From Methanobacteriota archaeon (lineage in GTDB: Archaea > Thermoplasmatota > Poseidoniia > Poseidoniales > Poseidoniaceae): a DNA stretch of 37,500 bases. The translations under genes and the position numbers were made by a program. The notes under the pieces are model-generated. The model worked only from the letters and a program-made list of their open reading frames with translations. It did no database searches and was not told the origin of the DNA. Below are positions 1 through 36,539 of the stretch, in pieces. The stretch lies in assembly GCA_018666575.1 (NCBI GenBank), contig JABIYX010000018.1, positions 1 through 37,500 of the forward strand, written 5' to 3'. Position 1 is the first letter of the stretch. Every line of letters begins with the position of its first letter.

Positions 1-627
1 GCAAGATCTTACAACAACATGGGGTATTTGTACCGCAGAAAGAATGACAAAAGCAAGGCGTTAGCCGCATATTCGGAAGTAGAAGCAATTCTATCAAATG
101 ATCAATCCCTCCTTGGAGCGCAAATCATTCTTGGCAGAGCCTTGCTCGATTTGGGAGAAGTTGACCGTGCGAGAAAGCATGCATTTGAAGCATTTGAGAG
201 AACTGACGAGGGTGATGACCTTCTTCTACACGCCCGTGCTCAAGCCCTTCTGGGTCGTTATCATGCGAAGATGAATGATTCAGAAACCTCACTGCATCAT
301 TATTCTGAATCATTAAATGTCATGTCTGATGCCGGCGACCCTGTTTCTTTAGTTGAAATTACAATTTTACTTGGAGAGGTTCTCGAAGACAGCGGGCGAA
401 GTGAAGATGCTCTGGAGCGATATCGAGAGGCTCTCATTATTGCAGAAGCCAATGACTTGAGAATGCAAATTGGTGAATTACTTTCAAAACTTGGTGGCGT
501 TGCTCCAGATCGGCAACGTCGAATGGAGTATTTGCAACGTGCGTTGGCTGTCTTCCGTGAATTAGGTGCTAGAACACGTATGCGAGAAGTACAGGCTCAA
601 GTTCATGCTGCTGTTATGGGCCGCTAG
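1..627 (+). CDS. TPR-like helical repeat protein, probably 5'-truncated by the window edge
   Basis: Frame 1 is open from nt 1 (first ATG at 19) to TAG 625-627. The translation consists of A/L/Y/R-rich helical units (ALAAYSEVEAIL, ARAQALLGRYHAKM, ALERYREALIIAE, YLQRALAVFRELG) typical of tetratricopeptide-like solenoids. No catalytic motif seen. Confidence 0.55.
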   Translation, partial: ARSYNNMGYLYRRKNDKSKALAAYSEVEAILSNDQSLLGAQIILGRALLDLGEVDRARKHAFEAFERTDEGDDLLLHARAQALLGRYHAKMNDSETSLHHYSESLNVMSDAGDPVSLVEITILLGEVLEDSGRSEDALERYREALIIAEANDLRMQIGELLSKLGGVAPDRQRRMEYLQRALAVFRELGARTRMREVQAQVHAAVMGR

Positions 628-1094
628 AACATTGGACGGTCCAATTCCAGAGTGATTGTTCCTTCATGATGGACCACCCAGATGTACTCGACGCCAGCAA
701 GTTCGACCATACCAGAGTGCGGTGCTCCACCTGTGCCAGAGAGTGAACGTTCAGTGTCAAGTTCCCCCCCTCCGTCATACAAAATCAACCTGGTATCAGT
801 TAGTTCGAGGGTAAATTGAGATTCATCAGCTTCAGTTGCTCGCCAGTAAACTCGCTCTGCATATGATGTATTGTCGATTCGACTTGCAGTATCAGTTCGC
901 TCAATTGCAGAAGCAAGATCGTTCATGTTTGCATCGATTGCTTCCTCGTTCCATCGTTCACGAGTTGCAGTTTCGATATCATAAATCCAAAGACTGAACA
1001 TAGTGAGGAGTAATACTCCCAATAAAAATGTGAATACATATCCAAGTTCAGTTGCTGCTGCTTCAGTTCTGCGTTGAATCTGTGATTGTCTCAA
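624..1094 (-). CDS. Small class-III-signal (type IV pilin-like) protein, third gene of the pilin-like trio
   Basis: 156-aa ORF. TTG start (1094-1092) lies 4 nt after a perfect SD GGAGGTGA (1106-1099) and overlaps the TGA of the upstream gene (TTGA), which indicates translational coupling. The N-terminus is a charged segment plus a hydrophobic helix (RRTEAAATELGYVFTFLLGVLLLTMFSLWI). The rest has no domain I recognise. Contains a G7 run (764-770, coding DGGGE). Confidence 0.55.
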   Translation of the reverse strand: MRQSQIQRRTEAAATELGYVFTFLLGVLLLTMFSLWIYDIETATRERWNEEAIDANMNDLASAIERTDTASRIDNTSYAERVYWRATEADESQFTLELTDTRLILYDGGGELDTERSLSGTGGAPHSGMVELAGVEYIWVVHHEGTITLELDRPMF

Positions 1095-3280
1095 GCAATC
1101 ACCTCCGCTACATAGGCGTCAAGGGATGAAATCTGCAGAGAGAATTGAATGGGCTCTCCTGCAGTATGCCAAATTGCTTCTGAAGTCCCGTAACCTGGAT
1201 CTGGAACCCAACCCACATAATCGGTTAACAAGTCAAGTCGACCAGGATATATTGTCCAATCAAGACTTGATTCTAGGCCATCTGTTGATGCGAGAGCAAT
1301 CGCTTCACCATAGGGGTCTGCCCATCCTCTACGAACCTCATAGGCGATGTCACTTGCAAGGCTTGTTCTCTTTGAGAGTGTTACCTCCATCAAGAGTTTT
1401 CCACTTCCAACTGCAGAGTCAGAGGTTGGGTGGAGCGATGGAATCGTTGCTGCAAAACGAGGGCCTGGACCTCCACGATCTGATGGAGATACAATCACGG
1501 TGGGATTATATTCGGGATGATTTGTCACAACAGCCCCTCCAGTCATAGCAACTTCCATTCCTGTTATCGATGATTCAAAGGCGTAGGTGAATCGAGAAAT
1601 TTGCATAATCCAAGCACTGCCTATTGGTGTATATGGCTCCTCAATGACCATGCCATACATTTCCATGTGGACACTCGCAGGATAGGCCCCTGTTTGCCAT
1701 GCTGTTTGCATGTCGATGATACTACGTCCACCCATACTTTCCCAAGGCATCTTCAAATCTACCCATCCAGAAGCGGTAACACCAACCTCAACACATCTTC
1801 TTTCACCATCATGCATGGCTTGAATCAAACCATTCGTTCCATTTGTGGCAGTGATGTACATGCCGTATCCTTCGGTTGTGTTGAGGTACACGTTCTCATT
1901 GTCAAGAGTCATTTCAATTGTAGTGTCTTGATTAAGAAGAGTGTTATTTGTTGCTAAGTTTGAGGCATTGAAAAGGGTCTGATGTCCGTTGGCTCGAAGT
2001 TCAAGATCGAGGTTCTCTGTTGTAATGACGTGGAATTTCTTACCAGATTCCATGCCTGTATCAACTGCGCCGAGATGGAACGCACCGTTCGCTTCAGAGT
2101 CGCTCTGCCATTGAATTCCTACAGGCAAATCAGATGATATTGAAGCGGCTCCATCGATTCCAGATGGGGGCCATTGAACCTGGCCAGAACTCATCCCTGG
2201 AAGAGTGATGCCATTCCCTCTCCATGTAGCAGTAGCAGGTGCAATGTTTGGATTTGTTAGAACAATGTGTCCCGGTTGAGATGGCGGTATGAATGATGTG
2301 CCGTGGAGGGTACCTGTCGTACTCTTCCAAGCGGTTGCTCCTTCTAATCCATTTAATGAGAGCATAAGTTGTGCATCTGCGGTTGTTGTGAGGTGAATAA
2401 CTTGAGGGGAGTCTAATGTCAAAGACTTTGACCAAGATGTTTCAACATTGATCAATTCTGACGGAACTGCAACTTCAGTAAAAGAACCGAATTCTCCGTT
2501 CCCGTTTACCATGATGAGTTCATCTGAAACAATGTTCAATTCCACTGTTCCTTGAGGCAAAGGTAAAGCCCATGAACGACCCTTTCCGTTTGCACCTGCG
2601 TCACTTGCATGTATTTCAGTCGAGCCAGTGTTGTTTTTCATCCAGTATACTTCAAGTTCCTGAGTGGATACAATTTTGAAATCATCTCCATTAAGATCCC
2701 ACTGCGTGACGTCATCCACAAATAATTTCGCTGTTTGAACAACAACTTGACCTTGCAGCAAATCGATCTCAATCGGTCCTAGTGGGAAACTTAGTCCCGG
2801 CTTGGTTGTGAGTATCACGGTGTTGGCCCATGATGGTGCTGTGTAATGGAACGGCCGGTCAGGGCCGAGACGCATGTCTGAGAAACAGACAGAAGTGGTT
2901 GTCGATTCAGGGTGACGCAATTGGAGTTCATCATCAAAGTCGATCACGTTTCGAATTCTAAAGGAATGATCTTCTTCCCATGTTGACGAATACCACATCC
3001 CAGTACGCACCGCATCCCACTCGAGGGATCCGTCGACAGGGACAAATTCTTGTGTCACCATGTCACCTGGCATGCCTTGTTCTGCTAAGGTGGTTGTTTG
3101 TTGGTTGAATTGTGTCATCTGAGCCGCCATATCATGACGCTCAATACTTCCTTCTAATTCCTCGATCACCGGTATCATTGTAACCATCATGATGCTGATG
3201 ATTGAGAGGACTCCTCCAAACAAAAGGACTGTAGCGATTGCGGCGGAGACCGCTTCTTCGTTACGCTGTAATTCGTTCAC
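1091..3280 (-). CDS. Large (729 aa) protein with a pilin-like N-terminal helix; putative pilus-associated adhesin or minor pilin
   Basis: GTG start (3280-3278) lies 4 nt after SD GGTGGTGA (3292-3285) and overlaps the upstream TGA (GTGA). The N-terminus MNELQRNEEA/VSAAIATVLLFGGVLSIISIMMVTMI resembles a class III signal plus pilin helix. The remainder is T/S/N/G-rich with no further TM segment and no recognisable catalytic motif. Confidence 0.55.
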   Translation of the reverse strand: MNELQRNEEAVSAAIATVLLFGGVLSIISIMMVTMIPVIEELEGSIERHDMAAQMTQFNQQTTTLAEQGMPGDMVTQEFVPVDGSLEWDAVRTGMWYSSTWEEDHSFRIRNVIDFDDELQLRHPESTTTSVCFSDMRLGPDRPFHYTAPSWANTVILTTKPGLSFPLGPIEIDLLQGQVVVQTAKLFVDDVTQWDLNGDDFKIVSTQELEVYWMKNNTGSTEIHASDAGANGKGRSWALPLPQGTVELNIVSDELIMVNGNGEFGSFTEVAVPSELINVETSWSKSLTLDSPQVIHLTTTADAQLMLSLNGLEGATAWKSTTGTLHGTSFIPPSQPGHIVLTNPNIAPATATWRGNGITLPGMSSGQVQWPPSGIDGAASISSDLPVGIQWQSDSEANGAFHLGAVDTGMESGKKFHVITTENLDLELRANGHQTLFNASNLATNNTLLNQDTTIEMTLDNENVYLNTTEGYGMYITATNGTNGLIQAMHDGERRCVEVGVTASGWVDLKMPWESMGGRSIIDMQTAWQTGAYPASVHMEMYGMVIEEPYTPIGSAWIMQISRFTYAFESSITGMEVAMTGGAVVTNHPEYNPTVIVSPSDRGGPGPRFAATIPSLHPTSDSAVGSGKLLMEVTLSKRTSLASDIAYEVRRGWADPYGEAIALASTDGLESSLDWTIYPGRLDLLTDYVGWVPDPGYGTSEAIWHTAGEPIQFSLQISSLDAYVAEVIA

Positions 3281-4317
3281 CCGTTCACCACCATCCGGCG
3301 AACGTCGATTTCTAAGGAGAGGGCTAAGTCTTGTGTTTCAACTGTGAATCCATCAATTCCACTTGCTCTTTGATACGGTGAAATACCAACGAATTCATCA
3401 AGTGTACCCGATGCTCGGTTGAGAGTATAATCTGTGAGCCAAATTTCGTGATACTGAGGGTCGACAATGGAATGGAGGGTGTTTTTCACAACGACTCTCA
3501 AATTGTATGCCTCTCCAGTGAAAAGCTGAATTGGGCCTGTTGATTCAACCTTGAATCCAACATTGGGCCCGTTGCCTAAAGACTCGCTGAGTTGAACATC
3601 GGTAAGGACCATCGAGAGTCGTGTTGTGCCATCGACAAGCGTGTCTAGGCGAAGACGAGGTGCTTTTTCTATTTCCCAAGATGTGCTTGGATCTTTGGAG
3701 ATACGGGCATCGTTAATCAATACGATCTGGTTGAGTCCGCCATCAATATTGGTGCTAATACTCAGACCTGATAACACAAAGCGAGCCCATCGATGAACGT
3801 GAGTACCGCCTTCGTTGTACATGTCTACGATAAGGTGGGAGTCGCTGGTCAAATTATGTTCAATGACAGTAAACTCAAAACTAGATTGAACGTCAAAGGT
3901 AATTGAATTCGTAGGGTTTGTAATCACAACTGAAGTAACGGATTCATTGATCGATAAGAAACGGATTGAACTGCTGTTTATTTCTTCTACCTGAACCACT
4001 TCATAGGGTGTTAAATCAGCTGATAGCACCCATTCCTCAACCAATTGAACTGGATTGATTGAAGAGGCTTGCAATGAAAGTGCTTGGCGAGTTCCGGTGC
4101 CATTAGGGGCATCTCCTACGACGTCAAGTCGGTCTTCAATACGGTCTGCGATGTTGTTCGCACTGTTCCAGTTTGTATTGTCGTGAAAGGCTACAAGGTA
4201 TGGGTTCAGGAATACGAATACGCCACCCATGATGCTAACGACCATTGCCAACATCATGATGACGCCGAGAATTTCACTCACTGCTTTTTCTTCATCATTT
4301 CGCTCTCGTCGCTGCAT
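3277..4317 (-). CDS. Archaeal type IV pilin N-terminal domain protein (first gene of the pilin-like trio)
   Basis: The longest ORF begins at GTG 4338. In-frame ATG 4317-4315 lies 5 nt after GAGGGGGGG (4331-4323, SD-like), so I call that start. The N-terminus MQRRERNDEEKA/VSEILGVIMMLAMVVSIMGGVFVFL matches the archaeal pilin N-terminal consensus (..R[GA]VSPVIGVILMVAITV.., PF07790/DUF1628 type), with K at -2 and A at -1 of the putative prepilin peptidase site. The roughly 300-aa mature part has no recognisable domain. Confidence 0.65.
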   Translation of the reverse strand: MQRRERNDEEKAVSEILGVIMMLAMVVSIMGGVFVFLNPYLVAFHDNTNWNSANNIADRIEDRLDVVGDAPNGTGTRQALSLQASSINPVQLVEEWVLSADLTPYEVVQVEEINSSSIRFLSINESVTSVVITNPTNSITFDVQSSFEFTVIEHNLTSDSHLIVDMYNEGGTHVHRWARFVLSGLSISTNIDGGLNQIVLINDARISKDPSTSWEIEKAPRLRLDTLVDGTTRLSMVLTDVQLSESLGNGPNVGFKVESTGPIQLFTGEAYNLRVVVKNTLHSIVDPQYHEIWLTDYTLNRASGTLDEFVGISPYQRASGIDGFTVETQDLALSLEIDVRRMVVNG

Positions 4318-4384
4318 CCATTCCCCCCCTCTTGTCACTTGAGCATCTCGCCTGCATTTAGGGATTGACCTGCTGTTTATTGAT

Positions 4385-5284
4385 TCATAGCAATTCCCTT
4401 GCTATTCTTTGGATTGCGTTTGTTGCAAAACCATCTCCATCTCGACGGCCTATGAAATGCGAAAAGTGAGGCCCATCTTGTGCAGAGATGTTTATGTCGC
4501 CTTCAAACACCTCATCAATTTCAAACAGAACAGTGGACTCTGCTAGATGTGGTGCATTATTCATTTCCGAAAGGTGTGTTAGGGTAATGCTCCTTGTTTG
4601 ATCAGTACACACCTCTTTCAAGAATTGGCCTGTTTGTTCATTGGACAAGTGCCCTCCTCTTCCAGAAATTCGATCTTTCAATGAACGGGGGTACGGTCCA
4701 TTGAGTAATCTATTGGAATCATAGTTCGCTTCTACAGCTATGTGCTGGCAGCCATGAACATGATGAACAAGTTCATCAGTCCAAGAACCGAGATCTGTGA
4801 TAATCGCTGTTCTTTCTCCTCCATGGCTGGCTACAAAGGCCACATTTTCTGCACCCGAATGAGGAACGGGGACGGGGAGTAACGATGTGCCGTGGGAGAA
4901 TTGCAGCACATCAAGGGATTCGAAATGATGCGTGAATTCTGGTAACAATCCGAGTTCTTGGGATGTACGATGATTCGCATGAACCGGGACTCCCCAGCGC
5001 TTCTGTGCGATGAGTGCACCGCCCCCATGGTCACCGTGGTGATGGGTTATGACGATGGCTTCCAAATCATTCGGACTAACGTCGAGAAGTTTCAATCGCT
5101 TTTCTAATTGCACGCCACTGAACCCTTGATCGACAAGGATGTGGGATGATTCAGTACTTAGAAGAGTGGCATTGCCACGACTTCCAGTGCCAAGGTGCGT
5201 AATTGACAGACCCATCCCAATCAATTTCATGGGATAGCAGGCGGATATTGAATACACCGATTGATTTGTTCCAAAAGTACACAT
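4385..5284 (-). CDS. MBL-fold metallo-hydrolase (COG1235, PhnP/YycJ-like)
   Basis: HxHxDH zinc motif ITHHHGDHGGG. N-terminal ITHLGTGSRGNATLL and ILVDQG strands are typical of this family. No signal peptide. The homologous core begins at MKLIGMG, so ATG 5230-5228 is an alternative start. A 67-nt gap to the pilin-like gene downstream suggests co-transcription. Confidence 0.8.
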   Translation of the reverse strand: MCTFGTNQSVYSISACYPMKLIGMGLSITHLGTGSRGNATLLSTESSHILVDQGFSGVQLEKRLKLLDVSPNDLEAIVITHHHGDHGGGALIAQKRWGVPVHANHRTSQELGLLPEFTHHFESLDVLQFSHGTSLLPVPVPHSGAENVAFVASHGGERTAIITDLGSWTDELVHHVHGCQHIAVEANYDSNRLLNGPYPRSLKDRISGRGGHLSNEQTGQFLKEVCTDQTRSITLTHLSEMNNAPHLAESTVLFEIDEVFEGDINISAQDGPHFSHFIGRRDGDGFATNAIQRIARELL

Positions 5285-5332
5285 TTCAGAACAGAAGAAA
5301 TCGCTTCACTGTATGAACAACGCTCCATCATT

Positions 5333-5340
5333 CCTATAAG
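5333..5340. promoter_or_regulatory. Possible shared TATA-like element (CCTATAAG) in a divergent promoter region
   Basis: This is the only TATA-like motif in the 5285-5388 spacer. It lies about 50 nt from TTG 5389 on the plus strand and about 50 nt from ATG 5284 on the minus strand. That spacing fits an archaeal TATA box at about -26 plus a short SD-containing leader. Motif match by eye only. Confidence 0.2.
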
Positions 5341-5388
5341 CATGGAGAAGAGGACAAATAATGCGGCGTTAGTCGCTTAGGTGTTTTT

Positions 5389-8300
5389 TTGCGACGAAGT
5401 CAGACAACCTTACTCTCCACTCTCGCAGTAATCGCAGGGCTCCTCTTCATGTCTCAGTTCCCTACGATTTCTCCTGTTTCCAATATTTACCCCGATGACA
5501 CGACTGGTGAAAAACCACCCACTACGGACACCGACGGAGACGGGATTCCCGATGTGCATGAGAATATTTTCGAAGAATGGTTGAACTTCAGCGCAGTTGA
5601 TGGTAGATTCATTTCTATGGAAGGGATGGATAAAGACGATGCTTCTGATGCTAATTTTGATACAGACCGAGATGGTCTGAATAATACTGAAGAATACTGT
5701 TGGCCATATCCTGCAAACTGTAACGATCCTGGTTTCTCCAGAGGCTTAACAGGACTTTTGGATGAAAACGGTGATCGGTTGTATCTTGACCCACGTGTAT
5801 CCGATACTGATGGTGATGGAATGCCCGATGGATTCGAAGCTGCTATGTGTGCTCGAGCCGGTGGTTTTGATATTGTCACACTTAGATACATTTGTCCATA
5901 TTTTGATCCTCTCAACGGCAGCGATTTGACAGATGACCCTGATGAAGATGGTTTTGACGTGAACAGGGACGGATTTATTTCAGTTGCAGAACAGTACACC
6001 TCTCCAGAAGAATATCGCTATGGTTCACCAAGCAATTTCACCACTGAACTAGATGGGCTATGGTGCGCTGCAACCCTCCCTCAAGGAGCAGTCATAACAC
6101 AATGGCCGTACATTAACACTGGAATCAATGCCTCCTTCCAGAACATTCTTCCAGCGTGTACGACCAATGCAACATCTGTTGGCGGCGAAGACCTATGGCT
6201 TGGAACCGACCCTCTACTCGAGGATTCTGACAGATACAGTTGGGATGGGTTTTCTGTTCGCCCCCTCTATCCTTCGTTTGGAGATGGTATGCCTGATGGA
6301 TGGGAAGTACACTTCGGTCTCGATCCATTAAATCGTTCCAATGCTCTTCTTGATATTGATCTCGATGGGTGGGACGTAAATCGTGATGGTGTGGTTTCTG
6401 TTGATGTTAGCCGCACGGAAACTGCGTTAGCGTTGGGGGAGTCATTGTCGAATCTTGAAGAATTTTACATACACAATGACGAAGGGAACACGGTAATGTC
6501 TGGATTGAAAGAAGTTCAGATTGGGTTGAATGATTCTTCTTACTTTAGCTATCCACTCACGTTCAATGCAGTCGAAGACAGCATGGCCATAATGCACCAT
6601 GATGTGCGAAGTATTCTCGTAGAGGATTCAACCACATACGTTCTCACACGATACGGGATGACTGTACTTGATTATGAACTTGGGATAACTCAAGATTACT
6701 GGTTCCCTCAAGGTTTTACAGGCTATGAAGCAATCTTTGTTGAATCTGATTCTGGCCCCCACTCCTTGGCCATTGCAACTTCCCATGGAATGCATGTTGC
6801 AGCGATTCAAGTTGATGGATTTTTGGAGCCGATTGACTCTTGGTCGTCAAGTGAGGCTATCCCTCTTTTCGCATTGGCACAACTTGCTATTGATGGGTCC
6901 TCCCAGCAAATTATTGCTCTTGGGGCGAATGGAGACGGAGCTGTATACGAAGTGACTACAGGTGGTTTGATTTCACAAACGTTCGATCTTGGAATTAATC
7001 TCAAGGCAAGCCTTTCAGAATCCCAGGTTACCGTTACCGAGCTTACCCATGGAACCGTTCCAGGCGGCGGACTTGTGCTTTATGTCGGAACCGAGCGTGG
7101 TTTGATGACTCTTGAATCTGCAACGGGAAGAGATGAGGCGACACCTTCGTGGAGATTCTTTTTCGATCCTAATCCTTCATTGATTCCTAACCGTATCGAT
7201 GATCTTCGTACACTAAACCTCGGTGCTAGCGGCAATCCTGCTGAAGTTCAAGCGTTGTACCTTGACGGGCCAAATGAACAAAATCCTACTGTCTTGTGGA
7301 TTGGAACTCCTTCAGGTTTGCATCGACTCAATTTAGAAATCAATGACATGACTTTTGGTGGACTGCTTGAACATCCTGGCGGAGATGCTGATGAACTTTC
7401 GAAAACCAATAATATCCATTCAATTCTTCCAACTGGAGATGAAATCATCGTAGGTTCATCCGCAGGACTATGGATTCTTGCTGGAAATCATCTCGATGTG
7501 TATGGTCTTCAGACGCAATCCAAACTTCCAGGCGAACTTGCTGCTCTTGCTACACTCGAAAAGAATGGTGAGACATACATACTCGCAGGGGCTGCTCCTG
7601 GTCGCTATGCTAACCTCGAATTGATCGATCCAGGGGCAAATGATTCCGATAGTGATGGTATTCCAGATGGATGGGAAATTGCCTACGGCTTAGATCCAAC
7701 GGATCCATGGGATGCCTTGTTGGATGGAGACGTTGATGGTCTTGATTTAAATCAAGATGGTTCCCTTGACAGATTATGGACCAATCTTGAAGAGTATCGT
7801 TTCATCGCTCGTTCTGAAGATGGCTACAACTCGACGCTTCCAAACCAAAGTGACTCAGACCTCGACGGTCTGCTCGATGGTTCAGAATACTTCGGTTATT
7901 TCCTTGAAGAGACTAATTTTGACTGCTATTACAACCCTCAATTAATCTACAGTTGTGATGAAACACTTGGTGAGCAAGCTCGAACACTCTACACTGCCTC
8001 TAATGCTCTTGATATCGGTACAGACCCAACTGTTTTGGATACCGATGGCGATGGTATGCCAGATGGTTGGGAGATTGAACATCGTCGCTGGATTGGAAAT
8101 TCTTACAATGGGGGCAACAATTGGTCACTCGACCCAACTCGATCTGAGGATGCAGGTTGGGATGCAGATCAAGATGGTCTTGCTAACGTTTGTGAATATC
8201 AATGGTCATTAGTCCGCCTTGCAGGACTGGCAGGAGATCTCTTTGAAGACTATGGTGAAAGTCCTGAATCAGTAGCAACATGGTCAATTCCAGATCCCAA

Positions 8301-11130: not shown

Positions 11131-11179
11131 TGACACGGAATGGAACGCTTGATAATCTTCCAAGTTCTGCATGTAACCG

Positions 11180-14100
11180 ATGAGTGCGAACTTTGTCTCC
11201 CGGCGAACCGTAGCGGCCCTGCTTCTTTCTCTATTTATGGGGATGAGCATGTCTCCATTCAGTGAACTCTGGATTGAAAATGCTGAAGCTGCTGAAGTGT
11301 CACGTCACACATACGAATTTAGTGATGGTACCACGGAATATATCGCTCTCTATCAAGGTGGTAATGCGGATAGTGGAGCGAAAATTTCTCTTCCAAAAGG
11401 TGCTGAAGTAACCGACGTGCAAATGACACTTTCAGGGGCATCTGCCACGGGTTGGTCATCAATTCCAACAACAACTCGGGATCATTGGGTTGCTGGAGAA
11501 GCATCCAATACGGACAATAAGAGCTCAGACCTGACCCTGGCTATGGCAAATGTTAGTCAATCATTCAATCCACACAGCATGGATGAAGATACCAATCCAT
11601 CAAGCACTGCTTGGTTAGATAACGGTACCTATGCAGTTCGACAACCTCACACATCAAACTCCACTGATGCTCTCTTTTCTCAACAGCGCAAGTTGACGCC
11701 TAACTCCTTGAACGCACAAGGGCAAGGCGCTGTTCTTCGTCATCACGATTGGTTGTATCTTTCAACATGGTCTTCTACTTCATTCCACAACATTGTCCAC
11801 CGGTTGTATCCTAACAACGGTACGCGAGAGAGCATCATTACGCTAGATCAAAATGGATGCACCCTCCCTTCAAAGCACTCCTCCTCCTATTATGGCCAAT
11901 ACGGTTTTAGAGATTGGGTCGTAACCGATGATGAACGACTCTTTGCTGTTCTATCAGGGTACAAATACATCCACAGTTCAACAGCTAATACGCTTTATCA
12001 CCGTGTTCTAGAGTTTGATATTTCCAATGAAAATGAATGGACCTGCATAAATTCATACCAACCGCAAGGTAATGGAGATTATACTGGAATCACCTATGAT
12101 CCTGTTGAAGATAAAATTTGGATTTTACACAACCAAAATCGGCGAATACAATCCTATGAACTCGACGATAGCGGGAATCTTGAACGTAGTGATGAGCACT
12201 TTACCTTCCAAACTTCCACCTCTTCAATATGGCAGTGTGGTGTAAGCAATCAACAAGCACGTGGTTTGGAAATGAATGAAACACATTTCTTCATGCGATG
12301 TCAAGACGGTCAATATTACAATGACAGAGATCAACTCGAAGCATGGGGCCGTTCTGGAACTGCAACTGCTTTGATTCCTGAGAACTCTGTTCGAAGTATC
12401 TCCTCTCTTGGCTATGGCCTCTTTTACGATGGGCAGCGATTCTTAACTGTGGATTCAGGATATTCCACATGGTCTAGTACACCTTCATATCACGAATTTG
12501 GTACGAGTTGGACATACAAAACTACGCCTGCGCCAGGGACAACCACATGGCTTGGACCTGTTATCGACACCCCCGAAGACGTTTTGTCAGTGAATATGGA
12601 AACTCTATGGTCAGCTGCTTCAATTGGTGACCGTGTTGACTATTGGGTTTCTGCAGACAATGGTACTCATTGGGTTGCTGTCGAATCCAATACAACAGTT
12701 CATTTCCAGCATCCTGGAACAGAACTCGTTTGGAAAGCAACACTTATTGGTTCAACCGCAGTTTCATGGTGGGTCGATTTAGAATACTCGACTGAATATG
12801 AAACAAGCGGGACGTGGATTTCTCCTCCGAAGCCTACTGGGACGAAGGTTGGCAAAGTCCGTCCTCAATGGACAGCCTCTCAAACTCCAGTAACGTCCAT
12901 CACCGTTCAAGTTTCAAATGACGATGGAACCACATGGCAATCTGCAGAGAACATGGTGGAGACAAGTTTCTCAACGGATGGAGCAGGTAACATACTGCGC
13001 TATGCCGTATCAATGACGACAACAGATCCTTACATTACACCTGTTTTAGACAATCTAGAACTTTTCTACGAGGAAGGTTATCCTGACAAACCAAAAATTG
13101 ACGTTGGATACGATGGCGTCTTCGATTGGAAGAGTATTCTTTTCCTCAATGAATCCTCAATCGATGTAAGCGATGATTCGGTTGTTGGCGTGGATGTTGA
13201 ATTCCAACCTACGCTTGTTGATGCGTTCAATGATTTCATACCAGACAACGGTGATGGGTTTGTCGAAGTACCACTTGCAATTAAAGCTCAAACTTCTGGG
13301 CGTGTGAAAATTACAAACATCGATGTGTCCTACAAGATGAATACACATGCAATCAATGCAGTTTTCGAAGGTGCCATGGCTGCACCTGACGGGATTGCAC
13401 GAAATATGATCATCAAAGTAGCACACGGTGATGAGGTAAATTACGTGACTGAAGTAATTGCTGAACTCAACAATTCAAATGGTCAAAACCCATCTTTCAA
13501 ATGGGCTCAAGGCGACACTTGTTCAACTCTGGATGACGCTGATGGAATCGTACATTTTGATGTCTCAAATTGTTCATCTTCAATTGATAATAATGATGTT
13601 CGAACCATTCGAATCCCAGTTACTGTTGACTGGTCTTGGGATGATGAACAATCAACTGAGGCTATTTTGACAGTCAAAGATTCCTTTGGTACAGCGGTTA
13701 ATAAATGGGATACAGAGAACATGAAACTTCGTGTTGAAAACGATATCCAACTCGATGGATTACAAGTCTTCGACGAAGATGGGCGGCAATTGTTTACTCA
13801 AGATTGGGTGCGTGGAGGGCAAAATATTTCCTTCCTTGGATTAATCCATTTTGAATCCTCTCAACTTTCACCATTGGCAGGCGAGTTTGAACTCCGTGTC
13901 CTTGGACAAAATGTGACTTTCGATGGTGATGCGATCGGACAACCAGTCATTCTTGCTCAGGAATCGAATCCAAGTTTTGGGTCTTACAATTTGACCTTTG
14001 AATCACCAATTGAATCTGCACCGGGCGGGATGATTTTCTATGTTCAAGCCGTTAATCTTCCAAATGGATCCGATTACTCAAATCCTGGATACAACACGAT

Positions 14101-16564
14101 CCGTCTGATTCTTGATGGAAATTCTCCTTTGGTTGTTGGCACAACTCCGTTTGATGGACAAGAGCGCCATATTGGACCTCCTGCTCCTGGTGGGCAGAGT
14201 GTTACAGTTAACATTCAAGACAGCGTTGACCCTCCAACACAAATAACGCTCCATTACTGGATTGGATGTAAATCAACAGTTTCTTTGGGTTGCCATGATT
14301 TCAACTTTGATGGATTGCCCCAAGAAGATGAATACACAGAGAAGACGTTTTCATCTCCTGAAACCATCGCTGGTGGGCTGAATATTTTTAACGGTCTCAT
14401 TGATGATTCAATGTTAACACATGGTCAACAAGTTTCATTCTTCGTCACTGGTAAGGATGGGCAAAATAACCAGGTTGCTATGGGAGGCGGTCCTGTCTGC
14501 CCACCTTCTCCTCAAATCTGTGGCTACGCTCCAGGCCAAGTAATGCCTAGTTGGGATGCAGACCTGGCCACTTACAAAATACGTCAAGAATTCGAACCTG
14601 AAGTCGATTTGACCAATTCAAGTATTGTTGGTCATGATGATGAAGATCCACTCCATCCTGGTATTATGTACACTGCACAAGTTGTTCTTTCAGATCGCAA
14701 CGGCTGGGACGATATTCAATTTGTTCAATTTGCATTAGGACAAGACATCAGCGATGACGACACATCAATCTTCATCCAACTCCAAGAAGATGAAAATGGA
14801 ATGCCAAAGGCTCACCTTGAATCAGGTGGTGAATTCATTGCTGTATCGAATTTGTACTCAGAAATCTCGACCTTTGAAGGAAACGCAAGTCAACTATTGA
14901 TACGTGCGAGATTCCAATTGACTTGGTCTTTCCCTGAATCCTTTGATACCAATGGAGAGACACTTTTCGTTCCTGTGCTACGCGTTACCGATAAACCGTG
15001 TAATGACGGTGAAGAAACGCCTTGTTTCACTCAAATTTCAGGTCTCGGCAATGACGCCTGGAGTCTTGATAATGATTTCAGATTTGATACTGAAGCAGGG
15101 CACATCAAAGCAGTAGAACTCCGTGATGGAACCAACCATTACAACGATGAAGTCGAAGAAACTCTGATTGGGTCCGGACAGGCTTTACGTGTTTCAGGAC
15201 GTGTTTTGTTTAGTGAAGACGAGACTCCAGCACCTCCTGGTGCATTCGATGTAGTCTTTGGAGACTTCGACCATTCATGGAAGACTTCGCCCCGTTCGAA
15301 TGGTGAATTTAGTCTCGATCTCTTGGTGCCTCCTGTGAATAGTGGTCATCTTGACCTTCGATTACAACTTGCTGATCTACCTGGGCTGGCCATGGATGAA
15401 ACAGACCCATTGCCACGTGTTAGATTGGCTGTTGATAGTTCGAACCCGACAATTCAGACAGTCATGATAAACGAGGTTCCTGCAGGTTCACCGATATCCA
15501 TCGGTGAAGCAGACTCTCTGCTTGTAATGCTTGAAACAGTTGATGATAACGGATTTGATTTCGATAGGCCAGCAGTTCTTCACTACAGAATACGTGCTGG
15601 TGAAGCTGAGATCTCGAGGGGAGCGTCCGCTCTTCCAGAAACCCTTCCATTCGGAGATCAATTCTTCTGGACTGGAAACATTGACCTCACCGACATGGGT
15701 GCTACAACGCTCTTACCATCGTATGTCGTTGATATCTGGGTTTCAGGTTCTGATGCGTCTGGAAATCCATTTGAAACTCTAAACAATAACATAGATGATC
15801 CATTTGCATCATGGCCTCTAGCTCTCCTTGGACCAAGTGTTTCGTTCGATAACGAAGGAACGTCGATCCAATGGAGTAATCCAAGCCCAGTGCAAGGTTC
15901 ATCTTCTGAACTCGACATCATTGTCGCTAACGAAGGTGGTAAAGGTGAACTTTCGTTCATTCTCCAACGACTTGTTGAAGGTGGAAACTGGAACGCAGAA
16001 TCCAACACAACAATTCCTGTTGCTGCAGGACTTAGTGCCTCCGTTTCCTTGCCTGTGATAGCAGAAGTCGCTCCTGGAGAATCACAAGAATACCGTTTAC
16101 TTGTCACAGTTGATGGAGTCGAAATGGATCGAATGACCGTTGATCCATTGATTGTCAAGAAGGATACTGTTCGAGATGGTGATGCTTTAGCAGAGCAAGC
16201 TGGTGAGAGTCAGTTTGCAATCTTCATGTACATCGTTGCCATTGGTTCTCTATCCGCTTTCTTGTGGATGCTTGTCATGTATCGTAAGATGAAATACGGA
16301 GATGAGGAATTTGAATCTGATCAAACAGATGTTGTTGTCGAAGAGATGGAAATGAAGATTGTACCTCAAATTGCGATTCCTCCTGTTCCACAACCAATTC
16401 CACAGCCGACTGCAACAGTTCCAACACCGAATTCAGCGGGTGCAACTAATGGTGATGACAATCGCGGTATTGCCCCTCTCCCGCCAACTGGTTTGCCTGC
16501 TGGATGGACGCAAGAGCAGTGGAATCATTTCGGATGGCAATATGTCGATTCACTCACAAAGTGA
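11180..16564 (+). CDS. Giant (1794 aa) type-I membrane-anchored surface protein with Asp-box motifs and a Pro/Trp-rich cytoplasmic tail
   Basis: Signal peptide is RRTVAALLLSLFMGMSMSPFSELWIENAEA. Two S-x-D-x-G-x-[TH]-W Asp-box/BNR-like motifs: SADNGTHW (12650-12673) and SNDDGTTW (12914-12937). A CARDB-like strand (LDIIVANEGGKGELSF) sits near the C-terminus. A single TM (FAIFMYIVAIGSLSAFLWMLVMY, about 16214-16282) is followed by RKMK and a roughly 95-aa tail (IPPVPQPIPQP...LPAGWTQEQWNHFGWQY). It starts 49 nt after the preceding giant gene. Confidence 0.8.
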   Translation: MSANFVSRRTVAALLLSLFMGMSMSPFSELWIENAEAAEVSRHTYEFSDGTTEYIALYQGGNADSGAKISLPKGAEVTDVQMTLSGASATGWSSIPTTTRDHWVAGEASNTDNKSSDLTLAMANVSQSFNPHSMDEDTNPSSTAWLDNGTYAVRQPHTSNSTDALFSQQRKLTPNSLNAQGQGAVLRHHDWLYLSTWSSTSFHNIVHRLYPNNGTRESIITLDQNGCTLPSKHSSSYYGQYGFRDWVVTDDERLFAVLSGYKYIHSSTANTLYHRVLEFDISNENEWTCINSYQPQGNGDYTGITYDPVEDKIWILHNQNRRIQSYELDDSGNLERSDEHFTFQTSTSSIWQCGVSNQQARGLEMNETHFFMRCQDGQYYNDRDQLEAWGRSGTATALIPENSVRSISSLGYGLFYDGQRFLTVDSGYSTWSSTPSYHEFGTSWTYKTTPAPGTTTWLGPVIDTPEDVLSVNMETLWSAASIGDRVDYWVSADNGTHWVAVESNTTVHFQHPGTELVWKATLIGSTAVSWWVDLEYSTEYETSGTWISPPKPTGTKVGKVRPQWTASQTPVTSITVQVSNDDGTTWQSAENMVETSFSTDGAGNILRYAVSMTTTDPYITPVLDNLELFYEEGYPDKPKIDVGYDGVFDWKSILFLNESSIDVSDDSVVGVDVEFQPTLVDAFNDFIPDNGDGFVEVPLAIKAQTSGRVKITNIDVSYKMNTHAINAVFEGAMAAPDGIARNMIIKVAHGDEVNYVTEVIAELNNSNGQNPSFKWAQGDTCSTLDDADGIVHFDVSNCSSSIDNNDVRTIRIPVTVDWSWDDEQSTEAILTVKDSFGTAVNKWDTENMKLRVENDIQLDGLQVFDEDGRQLFTQDWVRGGQNISFLGLIHFESSQLSPLAGEFELRVLGQNVTFDGDAIGQPVILAQESNPSFGSYNLTFESPIESAPGGMIFYVQAVNLPNGSDYSNPGYNTIRLILDGNSPLVVGTTPFDGQERHIGPPAPGGQSVTVNIQDSVDPPTQITLHYWIGCKSTVSLGCHDFNFDGLPQEDEYTEKTFSSPETIAGGLNIFNGLIDDSMLTHGQQVSFFVTGKDGQNNQVAMGGGPVCPPSPQICGYAPGQVMPSWDADLATYKIRQEFEPEVDLTNSSIVGHDDEDPLHPGIMYTAQVVLSDRNGWDDIQFVQFALGQDISDDDTSIFIQLQEDENGMPKAHLESGGEFIAVSNLYSEISTFEGNASQLLIRARFQLTWSFPESFDTNGETLFVPVLRVTDKPCNDGEETPCFTQISGLGNDAWSLDNDFRFDTEAGHIKAVELRDGTNHYNDEVEETLIGSGQALRVSGRVLFSEDETPAPPGAFDVVFGDFDHSWKTSPRSNGEFSLDLLVPPVNSGHLDLRLQLADLPGLAMDETDPLPRVRLAVDSSNPTIQTVMINEVPAGSPISIGEADSLLVMLETVDDNGFDFDRPAVLHYRIRAGEAEISRGASALPETLPFGDQFFWTGNIDLTDMGATTLLPSYVVDIWVSGSDASGNPFETLNNNIDDPFASWPLALLGPSVSFDNEGTSIQWSNPSPVQGSSSELDIIVANEGGKGELSFILQRLVEGGNWNAESNTTIPVAAGLSASVSLPVIAEVAPGESQEYRLLVTVDGVEMDRMTVDPLIVKKDTVRDGDALAEQAGESQFAIFMYIVAIGSLSAFLWMLVMYRKMKYGDEEFESDQTDVVVEEMEMKIVPQIAIPPVPQPIPQPTATVPTPNSAGATNGDDNRGIAPLPPTGLPAGWTQEQWNHFGWQYVDSLTK

Positions 16565-16573
16565 GGCATTAGT

Positions 16574-17014
16574 ATGTCAGAATCGGATGCCATGGTGACG
16601 CTGCAAGAGCGTATGGTGAATTTAATTGGACAACTCACAATGCCTGTAGTTGAAGTTGCTCTTGTTCTACAGCATCACATTCATGGAATGATGGCTTCAT
16701 TAACGGAACATGCGACTCAAACTGGAGGGAAAATCAATCAGAGGGTTGCTAATGCTTGGCCAATCGTTTCTCCTGATGATAGCATCGACTCACAAATCTC
16801 ATTTGACGTTGAGAAAGTTCTGAAAATTGTTGATCAAGATCGAATGGATATTTTGTCGACACTTATACGAGTTACACTTATCGAAACTGAAATGAATCTT
16901 ATTGAAGGAATACTTGCTTTACGATCTTGGGAACAATTGGTTCGTCAGCAACTTGCAGATGCCAATGGGCCTGGCCAACTCTTCTCTCCAATCGATTTGC
17001 CAGAGGAATGGTGA
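16574..17014 (+). CDS. Hypothetical small acidic cytoplasmic protein (146 aa)
   Basis: ATG lies 9 nt after the stop of the upstream gene and is preceded by GTGAGG (SD-like). No signal peptide or TM segment. Predicted helical with no recognisable motif. Its position indicates co-transcription with the giant genes. Confidence 0.55.
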   Translation: MSESDAMVTLQERMVNLIGQLTMPVVEVALVLQHHIHGMMASLTEHATQTGGKINQRVANAWPIVSPDDSIDSQISFDVEKVLKIVDQDRMDILSTLIRVTLIETEMNLIEGILALRSWEQLVRQQLADANGPGQLFSPIDLPEEW

Positions 17015-17038
17015 TTTAGTGATATTCAAAAATAACCT

Positions 17039-17845
17039 ATGGTTGGGGATACTATGAGCAAACAATCAATGCTCGGCATTCTCCTAGCATCTCTCCTTGT
17101 GACCGTTCCCATGGCAGGGTGTATTGATGAGATCTCCGATGTGCTGAATGGAGAATCATGGGGTCAAGTTGGAGGTTTGACACTTGCTTGCTTACGCAGT
17201 GACACGTACTCGAAAATGGTTGTAGAAATTGATTATGCTCCAGGATATGCCCCAGAGAGTAGCACAGTTTCATTACTCAAGCAACGACTTGAACAGGTCT
17301 GCGATAAACCAGATGGTATTTCCATGAGCTTGAATGAATATACCTTTGATGAGACTTCTTCTTGGGACGCAAATTTAGTACGTACTGTTGGGCATGATAC
17401 AATGGATGATTCTCCACTAAGCGGTTCTACTCTTCGATGGCATGTCATCATGCCGCAAGGGAGTTATTCAGACGATAGTGTCCTTGGAGTCGCAGTGGAC
17501 GCTTCTACGATCGCATTGTTTGGTGATTCAATTGATGATGCTAATGGATTGTTCAATCGTCCATCATCAGAAGAAGTTGAAAACAGTGTTATGATTCATG
17601 AATTTGGCCACCTTCTTGGGCTTGTTAATCTCGTATACACGTCGCCAGCAGATCACGAGGATGCAGAACATCCGGGTCATTCCAATAACGAGGATTCAGT
17701 CATGTACTGGGCAGTAGAGTCTCAAAGCCTTGGGGCGTTTTTTTCTGGTGATTTGCCAAGTGAATTTGATTCTGATGATTTAGCAGATTTAGAAGGAATG
17801 AAGTCTGGTGAGATTTCAACCAGCGATCAATTATGGCGTCCTTAA
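17039..17845 (+). CDS. Zinc metalloprotease, metzincin-like, predicted lipoprotein
   Basis: HEFGH (17597-17611) sits within SVMIHEFGHLLGLVN. It is followed by HEDAEHPGH and a candidate Met-turn SVMYW. The N-terminus LLASLLVTVPMAG/CIDE has a lipobox-like Cys. Alternative start ATG 17054 is preceded by GGGGA. Confidence 0.7.
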   Translation: MVGDTMSKQSMLGILLASLLVTVPMAGCIDEISDVLNGESWGQVGGLTLACLRSDTYSKMVVEIDYAPGYAPESSTVSLLKQRLEQVCDKPDGISMSLNEYTFDETSSWDANLVRTVGHDTMDDSPLSGSTLRWHVIMPQGSYSDDSVLGVAVDASTIALFGDSIDDANGLFNRPSSEEVENSVMIHEFGHLLGLVNLVYTSPADHEDAEHPGHSNNEDSVMYWAVESQSLGAFFSGDLPSEFDSDDLADLEGMKSGEISTSDQLWRP

Positions 17846-18156
17846 TTCTTCTTTGAATTCGACACAATAATCGTAGCATCTCTCCAGGCATCATAAATTG
17901 ACCATAGCCAGAGCGGTATGTAGAGGACGATGGTAAGTGCTAATGGAATCTGGAGTAACGTCCAATCAAATGCTCTTCGATGCTTTCGATTGAAGTGTTG
18001 TCCGAGGAAGAGTCCAGGGATTGCTGCAAGTAGGGCTGCGAAGATAGGTCGAAATGCCCCCCACATGCCAACGCCAAGGAATATTTCTCTCCAAATCTCG
18101 CGAACCATGCGTAATGGTGCAAGTTTGGATTGAGTTGTTGAACTCATAGGCCTCAT
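17842..18156 (-). CDS. Small membrane protein (2 TM), unknown function
   Basis: 104-aa ORF with two hydrophobic segments. The pattern AIPGLFLGQHFNRKHRRA ... LWLWSIYDAWRDA resembles small PGLGQxYxG...DAxxxA membrane proteins. Its stop overlaps the convergent metalloprotease stop (TTAA 17842-17845). No functional inference. Confidence 0.45.
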   Translation of the reverse strand: MRPMSSTTQSKLAPLRMVREIWREIFLGVGMWGAFRPIFAALLAAIPGLFLGQHFNRKHRRAFDWTLLQIPLALTIVLYIPLWLWSIYDAWRDATIIVSNSKKN

Positions 18157-18235
18157 GCCTTGGAGGAAGCATTGGTTTGTGAATCTGTTGCCAACTTTGC
18201 ATCATAATCAAGAACATTCGATGCTACGCCTAGCC

Positions 18236-19222
18236 ATGCCGAGAGTCTTGCTTACAGGGTTCACTCCATTTGGAGATCATGTTGAGAACATCTCAGAAAA
18301 ACTCGTCAACTCAATGCCAACGGTTCTTCCAATCAAGAATCCATTTGGACCAGGAGGCAGTGAAATCTCAGTTGAAAAGAAAATACTCTCTGTAGATGTT
18401 GCCGGATCGACTTGGACAAGTGAGGAACTTGAATCGAGGGAGTGGGATGCTATTCTCCATCTCGGTCTTTGCGGAGAATGTACAGAACCAAGAATTGAAC
18501 TCCGTGCTCAAGATTCCTTGAACATGAAGATTCCTGATAATTCTGGCCGGCAAATTGCTCATACGGCCATAAGTGGGAGGGGGGATTTGAAGACTCCAGT
18601 TCAAGTTAAGCGATGGGACATCCCTTCTTGGAAAATTCGTCCAACACTTTCGAGTGATGCAGGAAGTTACATCTGTAACGAGACGTATTATCGAACCCTT
18701 AATGCCTTGCAAGTCTCTGAAGTCGATGTTCCATGTCTGTTTCTCCATCTTCCTGATTCGTCCCATCTTTCCGTCTCTGATGGAATTCAATTGATTCGCG
18801 ATGTCATTTCCCACATGCTCTATCGGCCTTCAATCCAAGTGGCTGCAGGAGTATTTCATTCAGAAACGCAATTTTTGGCTATGCAACGGTCTGATTCTGA
18901 GCCAGGTTCTGGGAAATGGGAATTCCCAGGAGGCAGTGTGGAATCAAACGAATCTCCAGAAGAGGCTGTGATTCGTGAATTAAAGGAAGAATTGGGAGTT
19001 GCCTCTGAAATCAACAAAAAGTTAGGTCTTTGGTCGTTTACTTACCCATTCCTACATGTTGAATTACACGTGTTTCTCGTATCGACAGAAGATTCTCTGG
19101 ATTCATTGACACTTTCAGTTCACAAATCGATGCAATGGGTTAACTCAGAAGATGCAAGTAGACTCGATTGGCTGGAAGCGGATCTCCCTATCGTCGAACA
19201 TCTCCAAGGCTTAGGTTACTGA
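18236..19222 (+). CDS. Fusion protein: pyroglutamyl peptidase I (peptidase C15) N-terminal domain plus Nudix (MutT-like) hydrolase C-terminal domain
   Basis: The Pcp part has RVLLTGFTPFG, HLGLCGE..RIELRAQD..IPDNSG, DAGSYICNETYY (catalytic Cys context) and FLHLPD (catalytic His context), which aligns with Pyrococcus Pcp as I recall it. The Nudix part has GKWEFPGG plus a perfect Nudix box GSVESNESPEEAVIRELKEELGV (about 18932-19000). It is one uninterrupted frame. The longest ORF starts at 18155 and ATG 18221 is also possible. MPRVLLTGF (18236) matches canonical Pcp N-termini. Confidence 0.8.
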   Translation: MPRVLLTGFTPFGDHVENISEKLVNSMPTVLPIKNPFGPGGSEISVEKKILSVDVAGSTWTSEELESREWDAILHLGLCGECTEPRIELRAQDSLNMKIPDNSGRQIAHTAISGRGDLKTPVQVKRWDIPSWKIRPTLSSDAGSYICNETYYRTLNALQVSEVDVPCLFLHLPDSSHLSVSDGIQLIRDVISHMLYRPSIQVAAGVFHSETQFLAMQRSDSEPGSGKWEFPGGSVESNESPEEAVIRELKEELGVASEINKKLGLWSFTYPFLHVELHVFLVSTEDSLDSLTLSVHKSMQWVNSEDASRLDWLEADLPIVEHLQGLGY

Positions 19223-36406: not shown

Positions 36407-36539
36407 GGCTGTGCTATGACCTATGGGATTTGAAGCCCACGGCATGATGTTCACATTAATTCCAAAGTAATATGAAGCGAAAATGGTTGGGTAATTCATG
36501 CCTCCTTTCTGGCCTTTCAAACGTTCGAAAAAAAATTCT

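Follow-up and report, generated by a model that had tools for sequence, protein, structure and literature searches.

The 37,500-nucleotide stretch of DNA analysed here (the window; contig JABIYX010000018.1) lies on a 79-kb scaffold, assembled from a metagenome, of Candidatus Poseidoniales (Marine Group II, MGII; MGIIa/Poseidoniaceae-type) and it contains, between positions 624 and 17845, eight genes arranged in two divergent sets. On the minus strand, a gene for a metallo-beta-lactamase (MBL)-fold hydrolase is followed by genes for three pilin-like proteins, pil346, pil729 and pil156 (together termed the trio), and on the plus strand the gene for the giant protein G1 is followed by those for a second giant, G2, the cytoplasmic protein c146 and the lipoprotein mz268. 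With a confidence slightly better than even, we interpret the region as a mosaic of separable surface-adhesion genes, in which the trio would constitute a motor-less, minor-pilin-like set that is served by machinery encoded elsewhere. A first-pass annotation of the sequence had regarded all eight genes as a single module and, although its description of the components has largely held up, their integration into one unit, as proposed, has not, as the parts are separable and preceded by separate promoter-like elements.

Distribution and reality of the eight genes

The separability of the parts is reflected in their presence and absence among related genomes. G1 was found in every lineage examined. 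In the loci L025-27 and L029, including that of UBA439, a genome assigned to MGIIb (Tully 2019), a TPR protein gene is followed by the MBL gene, which diverges from G1, and by c146 and the small membrane protein gene m104, which leaves no space for G2, mz268 or the trio. Only G2 is absent from L023, L109, L139 and L152, the last of these a deep clade, all of which keep the trio, G1, c146 and mz268; the entire set is found in the L150 clade and in typical MGIIa. In these four G2-less lineages c146 and mz268 directly follow G1, which amounts to a natural deletion series. The trio is always complete and located right after the MBL gene, even at about 30% sequence identity, and together with mz268 it is found in MGIIa, in MGIIb.10 (UBA251) and in the L150 and L152 clades, with both jointly absent in L025-29. 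This pattern defines G1 and c146, with the MBL gene beside them, as an ancient core, G2 as an optional component and the trio and mz268 as co-occurring. Since G1 persists in lineages without them, it depends neither on G2 as an anchor nor on the pilin-like proteins, and the G2-less lineages thus contradict the earlier proposal that G1 is held by a membrane-anchored G2. We also considered whether the trio would be located beside a pilus motor in distant relatives, which is not the case, as at 30% identity its context remains the MBL gene and the trio facing G1. The comparison with relatives that the first-pass annotation had called for has given a divided answer: gene order is kept, but the eight genes do not co-occur in every lineage. 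The former is uninformative on the existence of a module and was rejected as evidence because the entire 37-kb window is collinear among relatives, out to the genes for DnaJ and ArcTGT.

All eight proteins are conserved in about 28 Poseidoniales species-representative genomes and about 80 metagenome contigs, from which it follows that their open reading frames (ORFs) represent real genes and did not arise by chance. The longest ORFs extend over positions 624-1094, 1091-3280, 3277-4338 and 4385-5284 on the minus strand and 5389-11130, 11180-16564, 16574-17014 and 17039-17845 on the plus strand, as previously annotated, and the gaps of 49, 9 and 24 nt between the latter were likewise confirmed. 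Orthologue alignment and the NCBI gene call place the start of the MBL gene at about 5230, and the divergent spacer therefore measures about 158 nt (5231-5388) rather than the 104 nt (5285-5388) assumed initially. In case of pil346, a conserved ATG at 4317 with an upstream G-rich stretch resembling a Shine-Dalgarno sequence yields the anticipated length of 346 residues. The TTG start of G1 at 5389 and its length of 1913 residues agree with the NCBI call and with an N-terminal sequence, MRRSQTTLL, that is kept in all orthologues; a later ATG selected by one gene caller would remove the signal peptide. For mz268, orthologue alignment points to a probable start at 17054 and thus to a protein of 263 residues.

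A Kyte-Doolittle scan located N-terminal hydrophobic segments in the trio, G1, G2 and the lipoprotein, in line with the predicted export of these products. That exported products cluster here says less about a functional unit than it had seemed to, because exported giants without Pfam family are common in this genome region, as exported proteins of this kind are in the genome. Except for pil346 and the MBL protein, the public names of all products are 'hypothetical protein'. Sequence and profile searches of the eight proteins against Pfam, NCBIfam and the PDB gave nothing significant for G2, c146, pil156 and pil729, and motif-level matches alone for mz268 and pil346. In the same 37.5-kb window, Pfam and NCBIfam revealed none of the families that mark an S-layer, a PGF-CTERM protein or the ATPase or platform of a pilus or archaellum, as had been noted before, and none was found in the adjacent 10 kb to the left.

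The pilin-like trio and its candidate machinery

The genes of the trio, pil346 (3277..4317), pil729 (1091..3280) and, as its last member, pil156 (624..1094), all on the minus strand, are connected by 4-nt overlaps of start and stop codons, which suggests translational coupling. Their products share the hallmarks of a class III signal, a charged leader that ends in (K/R/D/E)(G/A) before a hydrophobic domain. The motif at the predicted cleavage site is (K/D/R)(A/G)|VSE for pil346 (20 of 25 orthologues) and (E/D)A|VSA for pil729 (18 of 23), and in pil156 the conserved leader sequence ..E(A/G)|AATELGY(V/I)FTFLLG leads into a hydrophobic helix. Residue -1 is Ala or Gly in all orthologues save for a single Ser, residue -2 is Lys, Arg, Asp or Glu in 20/25 (pil346), 18/23 (pil729) and 16/21 (pil156), and one to three Lys or Arg are found within the 14 residues preceding the site. 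The subsequent segment (+4 to +23) has a mean hydropathy of 1.9-2.5, and the trio thus displays the approximately 20 hydrophobic residues and N-terminal helix preceding a beta-rich body that characterise pilins, with the structural part of this description modelled for pil729. In its AlphaFold2 model (pLDDT 87.8, pTM 0.85), a 65-residue helix (residues 4-68) is followed by an all-beta body consisting of multiple sandwiches. Together with profile matches to archaeal pilins, these features corroborate the earlier assignment of the trio as pilin-like.

The resemblance to known pilin families is concentrated in the N-terminal helix. Pilin_N is matched by nine out of nine orthologues of pil346 (E ≤ 0.1, best 1.9e-4) and DUF7289 by eight out of nine (best E = 1.8e-6), and two of the seven pil156 orthologues match DUF7266 (best E = 1.1e-7). 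For the proteins of the window, the scores are lower: pil346 reaches 18.7 bits with Pilin_N (PF07790; cut-off 25.2) and 18.9 bits with TIGR02537 (cut-off 20), and its best PDB profile matches are archaeal pilins, across the helix alone; pil729 and pil156 gave no Pilin_N match. With DUF7289 and DUF7266 the window proteins, aligned to positions 2-72 of the 238 in the profile, scored 16-20 bits at a cut-off of 27, which falls short of membership and indicates related N-terminal modules. The JGI name for pil346 is 'flagellin-like protein'. A search of the PDB with the pil729 model in Foldseek recovered low-scoring jelly-roll and beta-sandwich matches alone (TMq ≤ 0.12) and no global relative, and the assignment of a function to this protein by fold transfer was thus rejected. 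The structural comparison proposed in the first-pass annotation was carried out for pil729 and G2 and resulted in generic jelly-roll or Ig/FN3 matches alone. The family of pil729 is narrow, with 111 matches among 1.84e9 representatives, about 13 of which are full length. The possibility that the trio consists of paralogues was also discarded, as hhalign found similarity between pil346 and pil729 in the first 45 residues alone and none between pil346 and pil156. Both pil346 and pil729 diverge faster than their neighbours, with 68-71% identity compared to 83-90% for the MBL protein, G1, G2 and the TPR protein in the same pairs of genomes (L003-L022), as proteins exposed on the surface would be expected to do when subject to diversifying pressure. 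A protein identical to pil156 is found in record ERZ23491652 on a '140-Mb contig' in the company of a Phage_capsid_2 gene and of unrelated genes of bacterial appearance, which most likely is a concatenated or chimeric record and not a second genomic context. A literature search on DUF7289, DUF7266 and the pilins, S-layer and metaproteomics of MGII found nothing.

Neither an assembly ATPase, nor a platform protein or prepilin peptidase is encoded in the window, in the 10 kb to its left or in any orthologous locus, and the region thus lacks the co-located components that define a type IV filament (TFF) locus. Published surveys describe flaB/H/I/J and extra flaI/flaJ/tadC-type genes in all MGIIa and in few MGIIb subclades, and FlaK in a fraction of 0.90 of MGIIa compared to 0.16 of MGIIb genomes (Tully 2019). 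Among the metagenome-assembled genomes listed in that study, archaellum components are found in all seven that are trio-positive (SAT95, UBA124, UBA486, TMED99, SP3054, SP67 via its representative UBA85, and UBA251 of MGIIb.10), which carry flaI and flaJ, and the single trio-less one, UBA439 (0/1), is not among its genomes with such components. In this small sample, the distribution fits a dependence of the trio on an archaellum-type peptidase or assembly system. The separation of pilin genes from their motors has precedents in archaea (PMC4371748). In Haloferax volcanii, the processing sites listed in the same work are DA|VS for PilA1 and PilA3 and RA|VS for PilA4-6; the trio resembles these adhesion pilins (PilA1-6) and other FlaFind-positive substrates of PibD in its short charged leaders, the (D/R)A|VS site, the hydrophobic domain and the N-terminal helix, and also in the location of its genes away from those for biosynthesis, as the H. 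volcanii pilin genes lie away from pilB and pilC. In contrast to the H. volcanii pilins, the trio proteins are two to five times larger, their beta bodies are without detectable relative, their genes form a fixed overlapping set, their Pfam matches stay below the cut-off and they are known here from their genes alone. Within Pfam, pil346 and pil156 come closest to the haloarchaeal families DUF7289 and DUF7266, respectively, both of which are uncharacterised.

Another comparison concerns the tip complexes formed by minor pilins and pseudopilins, for which GspI/J/K and FimU-PilVWX together with PilY1 serve as bacterial examples. As in these complexes, unequal pilin-like subunits are encoded beside giant calcium-binding or Ig-rich surface proteins, but the locus has no ATPase, platform or peptidase, its giants and the trio have been kept or lost independently of each other, and its likeness to PilY1 and GspK would lie in the arrangement of the genes. 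Archaeal TFF loci in which a set of pilins adjoins large adhesins of the Ig-rich or PilY-like kind have been described (bioRxiv 10.64898/2026.04.22.720090). The earlier statement that no archaeal system of this composition is known thus holds in detail but not in kind. The locus is close to known archaeal pilin/adhesin sets, with the pil729, G2, c146 and mz268 families being lineage-specific and uncharacterised.

Giant surface proteins and their partners

G1 (5389..11130, plus strand) is a secreted, very acidic protein of 1913 residues with a variable centre and an invariant C-terminus. Its Sec-type N-terminal signal is followed by no further hydrophobic segment, which bears out the earlier view that it has no other anchor. 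It contains 14 DxDxDGxxD motifs and 27 N-glycosylation sequons and carries a net charge of about -254. TSP3_bac (PF18884) matches its N-terminal fragment with 32.5 bits at a cut-off of 25, and the whole protein with 22.6 bits. Of the TSP3 repeats and the propeller attributed to G1 in the first-pass annotation, the former were thus recovered, but the latter is represented by weak internal repeats: the two halves of the motif-free centre (residues 385-748, approximately) align in hhalign with a probability of 30% and E = 5.6e-4 around a recurring lWvGT.sGl, and the centre has no Pfam match. With 21-28% identity to L025, compared to 40-55% elsewhere in the protein, this is the fastest-evolving part of G1. 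The last 11 residues, SPIRYDSRxT(T) (window 11095-11127), are near-invariant and kept even in MGIIb-type genomes; the polar end, SPIRYDSRQTT in the window, is distinct from a PGF-CTERM signal with its PGF motif, transmembrane helix and basic tail, and looks like a docking motif. In its repeated DxDxDGxxD calcium motifs, its secretion and its association with adhesion, G1 is of the type of the bacterial TSP3 adhesins CglD and MtsD of Myxococcus. The respective NCBIfam models align to its repeat regions alone (50.4 bits for CglD and 33 bits for MtsD, at cut-offs of 400 and 800), which excludes it from either equivalog family, and it differs from these adhesins by the lack of a VWA domain and by central and C-terminal regions that match no known family. 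'Thrombospondin genes' were reported as widespread in the MGII order and linked to adhesion (Rinke et al., 2019), on the basis of KEGG orthology (KO) terms, and may include the G1 gene. Supplementary Data 10 of Tully 2019 lists pangenome clusters strongly enriched in MGIIa relative to MGIIb with spurious eukaryotic KO names, namely protocadherin Fat (0.83 vs 0.17), cadherin 23 (0.79 vs 0) and calmodulin (0.97 vs 0.22), a few of which may represent G1, G2 or further giants encoded in this region.

The accessory giant G2 (11180..16564, plus strand; 1794 residues) is a type I membrane protein. A signal helix is found at residues 8-20 of the model, and the previously noted membrane anchor was located to a C-terminal transmembrane segment at residues 1677-1701, after which a conserved tail of about 90 residues distinguishes the protein from those with a PGF-CTERM signal. 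Within this cytoplasmic tail, the conserved sequence PPxGLPxGWTxEQWxHxGWQY (window 16481-16561), of which PPxGLPxGWTxxQWxxxGxxY is invariant, also looks like a docking motif. The AlphaFold2 model of residues 1-1200 is all-beta (pLDDT 66), and Foldseek relates it to generic Ig/FN3/MG arrays, such as RPTPmu, the mastigoneme protein Mst1, alpha2-macroglobulin, Bap and Cpe0147. As modelled, the ectodomain consists of Ig/FN3-like domains in tandem. Sequence searches of Pfam and the PDB gave no match for G2, whose homologues are confined to Poseidoniales.

Following either G1 or G2 in every lineage, c146 (16574..17014, plus strand; 146 residues) is a cytoplasmic protein and core partner of G1, with the conserved motifs DRMDI, LRxWE and a C-terminal SPGxLFSPL(E/D)..(W/F), and without Pfam or PDB match. 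In mz268 (17039..17845, plus strand), a lipobox-like (A/S)GC, HE(F/A)GHLLGLVN, DHED..H and SVMYW are invariant. Peptidase_M10 matches the motif in four of four orthologues, below its cut-off; the score is 18.3 bits over 15 residues, where 24 would be required. The protein resembles metzincins (M10 matrixins and M7 snapalysin-like proteins) in its HExxHxxG sequence, an acidic/His cluster and the Met-containing SVMYW, and from its HExxH core and this possible Met-turn it is plausible that it works like a zincin. Since Asn replaces the canonical third ligand (HExxHxxGxxN in place of HExxHxxGxx(H/D)) and the profile score stays below the cut-off, we describe it as zincin-like rather than as a proven metzincin, and of the earlier designation as a metzincin-like lipoprotein the lipoprotein with a zincin motif remains. 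The convergent neighbour m104 (17842..18156, minus strand), a small protein with two to three transmembrane segments, is present in all lineages and adjoins c146 or mz268 in both MGIIa and MGIIb-type loci; its membership is uncertain.

The cytoplasmic MBL-fold metallo-hydrolase (4385..5230, minus strand; 281 residues) is a conserved neighbour whose functional membership is doubtful. Its assignment was substantiated by matches to Lactamase_B (PF00753, 50.1 bits; PF12706, 50.7 bits) and by an HHHGDH motif of the HxHxDH type, with additional weak PhnP-like and Apyc1-like matches, and its public names are MBL fold metallo-hydrolase or phosphoribosyl 1,2-cyclic phosphodiesterase, PhnP-like. It adjoins G1 even in loci without trio. 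The promoter-like motif GGTCAATCCCTAAATG upstream of the trio (4355..4370, minus strand) is conserved in most orthologous loci; the trio motif GGTCAATNCCTAAATG is located directly past the MBL stop codon and before the trio start, and no second exact copy of it occurs in the window. Given this conserved promoter-like motif between it and the trio, the MBL gene cannot simply be regarded as the first gene of a pilin operon, as had been assumed. About 50 nt upstream of G1, the element GAACAACGCTCCATCATTCCTATAAG (5315..5340, plus strand) is conserved in MGIIa and in the trio-less L025 and L029 and is a probable G1 promoter with an upstream box. A regulatory motif shared by both strands was considered and dismissed, as the trio motif is absent upstream of G1 and the G1 element GAACAnnGCTCCATCAnnnTnnTAAG, still found in genomes that lack the trio, differs from it.

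From the observed genes, their conservation and distribution, their signal motifs and the predicted folds, we infer how cleavage, assembly, contacts and adhesion may come about. An ancient core common to both families would comprise G1, c146, which always comes after it, and the MBL gene across the conserved promoter region, and the variable, probably beta-rich centre of G1 would be the likely ligand-binding part. The trio would be cleaved past the (K/R/D/E)(A/G) site by the archaellum-type prepilin peptidase FlaK/ArlK and inserted and assembled by machinery encoded elsewhere, to form either a tip of the minor-pilin kind or a short pseudopilus, on which the large beta-sandwich body of pil729 would be displayed. 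Travelling with the trio, mz268 may process or shed surface proteins, and G2 would provide an optional extra adhesin in the form of a membrane-anchored string of Ig-like domains. The probable joint function of these parts is to attach the cell to particles, to algae or to other cells.

Alternative explanations and wider setting

The arrangement of the locus would also be compatible with a single integrated appendage of all eight gene products, with a pilin-like stalk or anchor, a soluble, calcium-stiffened G1 held by G2 and a lipoprotein that acts as a protease in maturation or shedding. We consider this improbable. Tight adjacency, divergent orientation and short gaps would favour it, as would the full eight-gene set in most MGIIa genomes and contigs, the C-terminal motif of G1 and the tail of G2 as potential docking sites and the frequent pairing of pilins with giant adhesins in archaeal TFF loci, but at least five lineages or loci have kept G1 in the absence of G2, L025-29 have kept it in the absence of G2, trio and mz268, the promoter-like elements of trio and G1 differ, and collinearity covers the whole 37 kb. 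A role of the trio as unprocessed bitopic membrane proteins, akin to ArlF/ArlG (FlaF/FlaG), which would serve as a fixed envelope scaffold or anchor, appears unlikely on account of the small -1 residue and the VS(E/A) sequence, which match experimentally listed PibD substrates, the short and charged leaders, and the co-distribution with archaellum and FlaK. Yet a distant orthologue is named 'FlaG/FlaF family flagellin' by JGI, the pilin resemblance is confined to the N-terminal helix, two of the proteins, at 346 and 729 residues, greatly exceed typical pilins in size, a motor is missing from the vicinity and in 20-25% of the orthologues residue -2 is not Lys, Arg, Asp or Glu. We are similarly doubtful that the giants are general structural proteins of an S-layer-like or glycocalyx type and the locus part of a larger envelope and N-glycosylation island, whose neighbours would have nothing in common functionally except their export. 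This would account for the universal presence of G1 in the order, its huge size, high acidity and richness in sequons, and for a neighbourhood with an STT3/AglB-domain giant, an S8 peptidase, a beta-helix giant, a glycosyltransferase family 2 (GT2) protein with transmembrane segments and exported proteins without family, and no MGII S-layer protein was found in our literature search. It is at odds with the lack of a detectable S-layer-type domain or anchor, the dispensability of G2, TSP3 repeats that are typical of adhesins and matrix proteins and a fast-evolving G1 centre that would suit a binding or exposed domain.

The preferred interpretation, a mosaic of separable adhesion genes with a motor-less trio, has to contend with several observations that weigh against it. 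The pilin matches of the window proteins in Pfam and NCBIfam stay below the cut-offs and cover the N-terminal helix alone, and the pil729 model found no pilin-like match in Foldseek. The absence of the trio from trio-less genomes refers to the ±10 kb surrounding the MBL gene only. The joint distribution of trio and mz268 rests on few independent evolutionary events, and the same applies to that of trio and archaellum, which includes a single trio-less genome and is confounded by phylogeny. The confidence of the G2 model is just moderate, the central propeller of G1 is putative, and mz268, with its non-canonical Asn at the position of the third ligand, has no PDB sequence relative and no significant family match. 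We would assign a low probability to the proposal that trio and mz268 constitute an undescribed accessory, with no motor of its own, to the archaellum or type IV filament system of MGII, in which a heterotrimeric cap or short pseudopilus, cut by FlaK and assembled by machinery of the ArlI/ArlJ type, displays the multi-beta-sandwich subunit pil729 and docks the calcium-binding giant or giants. If true, the archaellum apparatus of the chemotaxis-less MGII would be an adhesion organelle.

The surroundings of the locus contain further proteins that may concern the cell envelope. At the left end of the window (positions 1-627, plus strand), a '202-aa TPR' ORF is the C-terminus of an AAA_16 and TPR protein of 837-840 residues (STAND/MalT-like; L154:10468-12981), whose frame is open from window position 1 and whose gene is convergent with the trio locus in every lineage, including trio-less ones. 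Further to the left in the same genome (L154:12998-20471) follow a giant of 1446 residues with weak Beta_helix and Big_7 matches, an S8 peptidase of 401 residues and a protein of 3163 residues with an STT3 (AglB oligosaccharyltransferase) domain, a size unusual for an STT3 protein; this order is kept in the divergent clades L150 and L152. To the right, a pyroglutamyl peptidase (Peptidase_C15)-NUDIX fusion of 333-355 residues (18155-19222, plus strand) has kept its position in both MGII families. On the same side lie a membrane GT2 protein and three more exported proteins without Pfam family, which contain a signal peptide and/or transmembrane segments: a 740-residue protein (23002-25224, minus strand), a 680-residue protein with a C-terminal zinc ribbon (29001-31043, plus strand) and an 847-residue protein (33977-36520, minus strand). 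A 312-residue membrane protein with a double zinc ribbon (20877-21815, plus strand) equally belongs to no Pfam family. The rest of the window contains archaeal housekeeping genes, encoding an ArcTGT-type DUF5591 protein, S15 with S13_N, GluRS, RNase HII and DnaJ, and no tRNA genes.

Marine Group II, which has remained uncultured, comprises the most abundant archaea of surface ocean water. Published genomics has ascribed its attachment to particles and algae to archaella and 'thrombospondin' proteins, leaving the adhesins and accessory pilins unnamed. The locus described here offers concrete candidates for adhesion, in the form of a universal calcium-binding giant, an optional giant with an array of Ig-like domains and a lineage-specific trio that so far tracks the archaellum genes. 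The same proteins are plausible virus receptors. Should the connection to the archaellum fail, the region would still map uncharacterised envelope proteins of MGII; should it hold, the role of the MGII archaellum as an adhesion organ would become testable.

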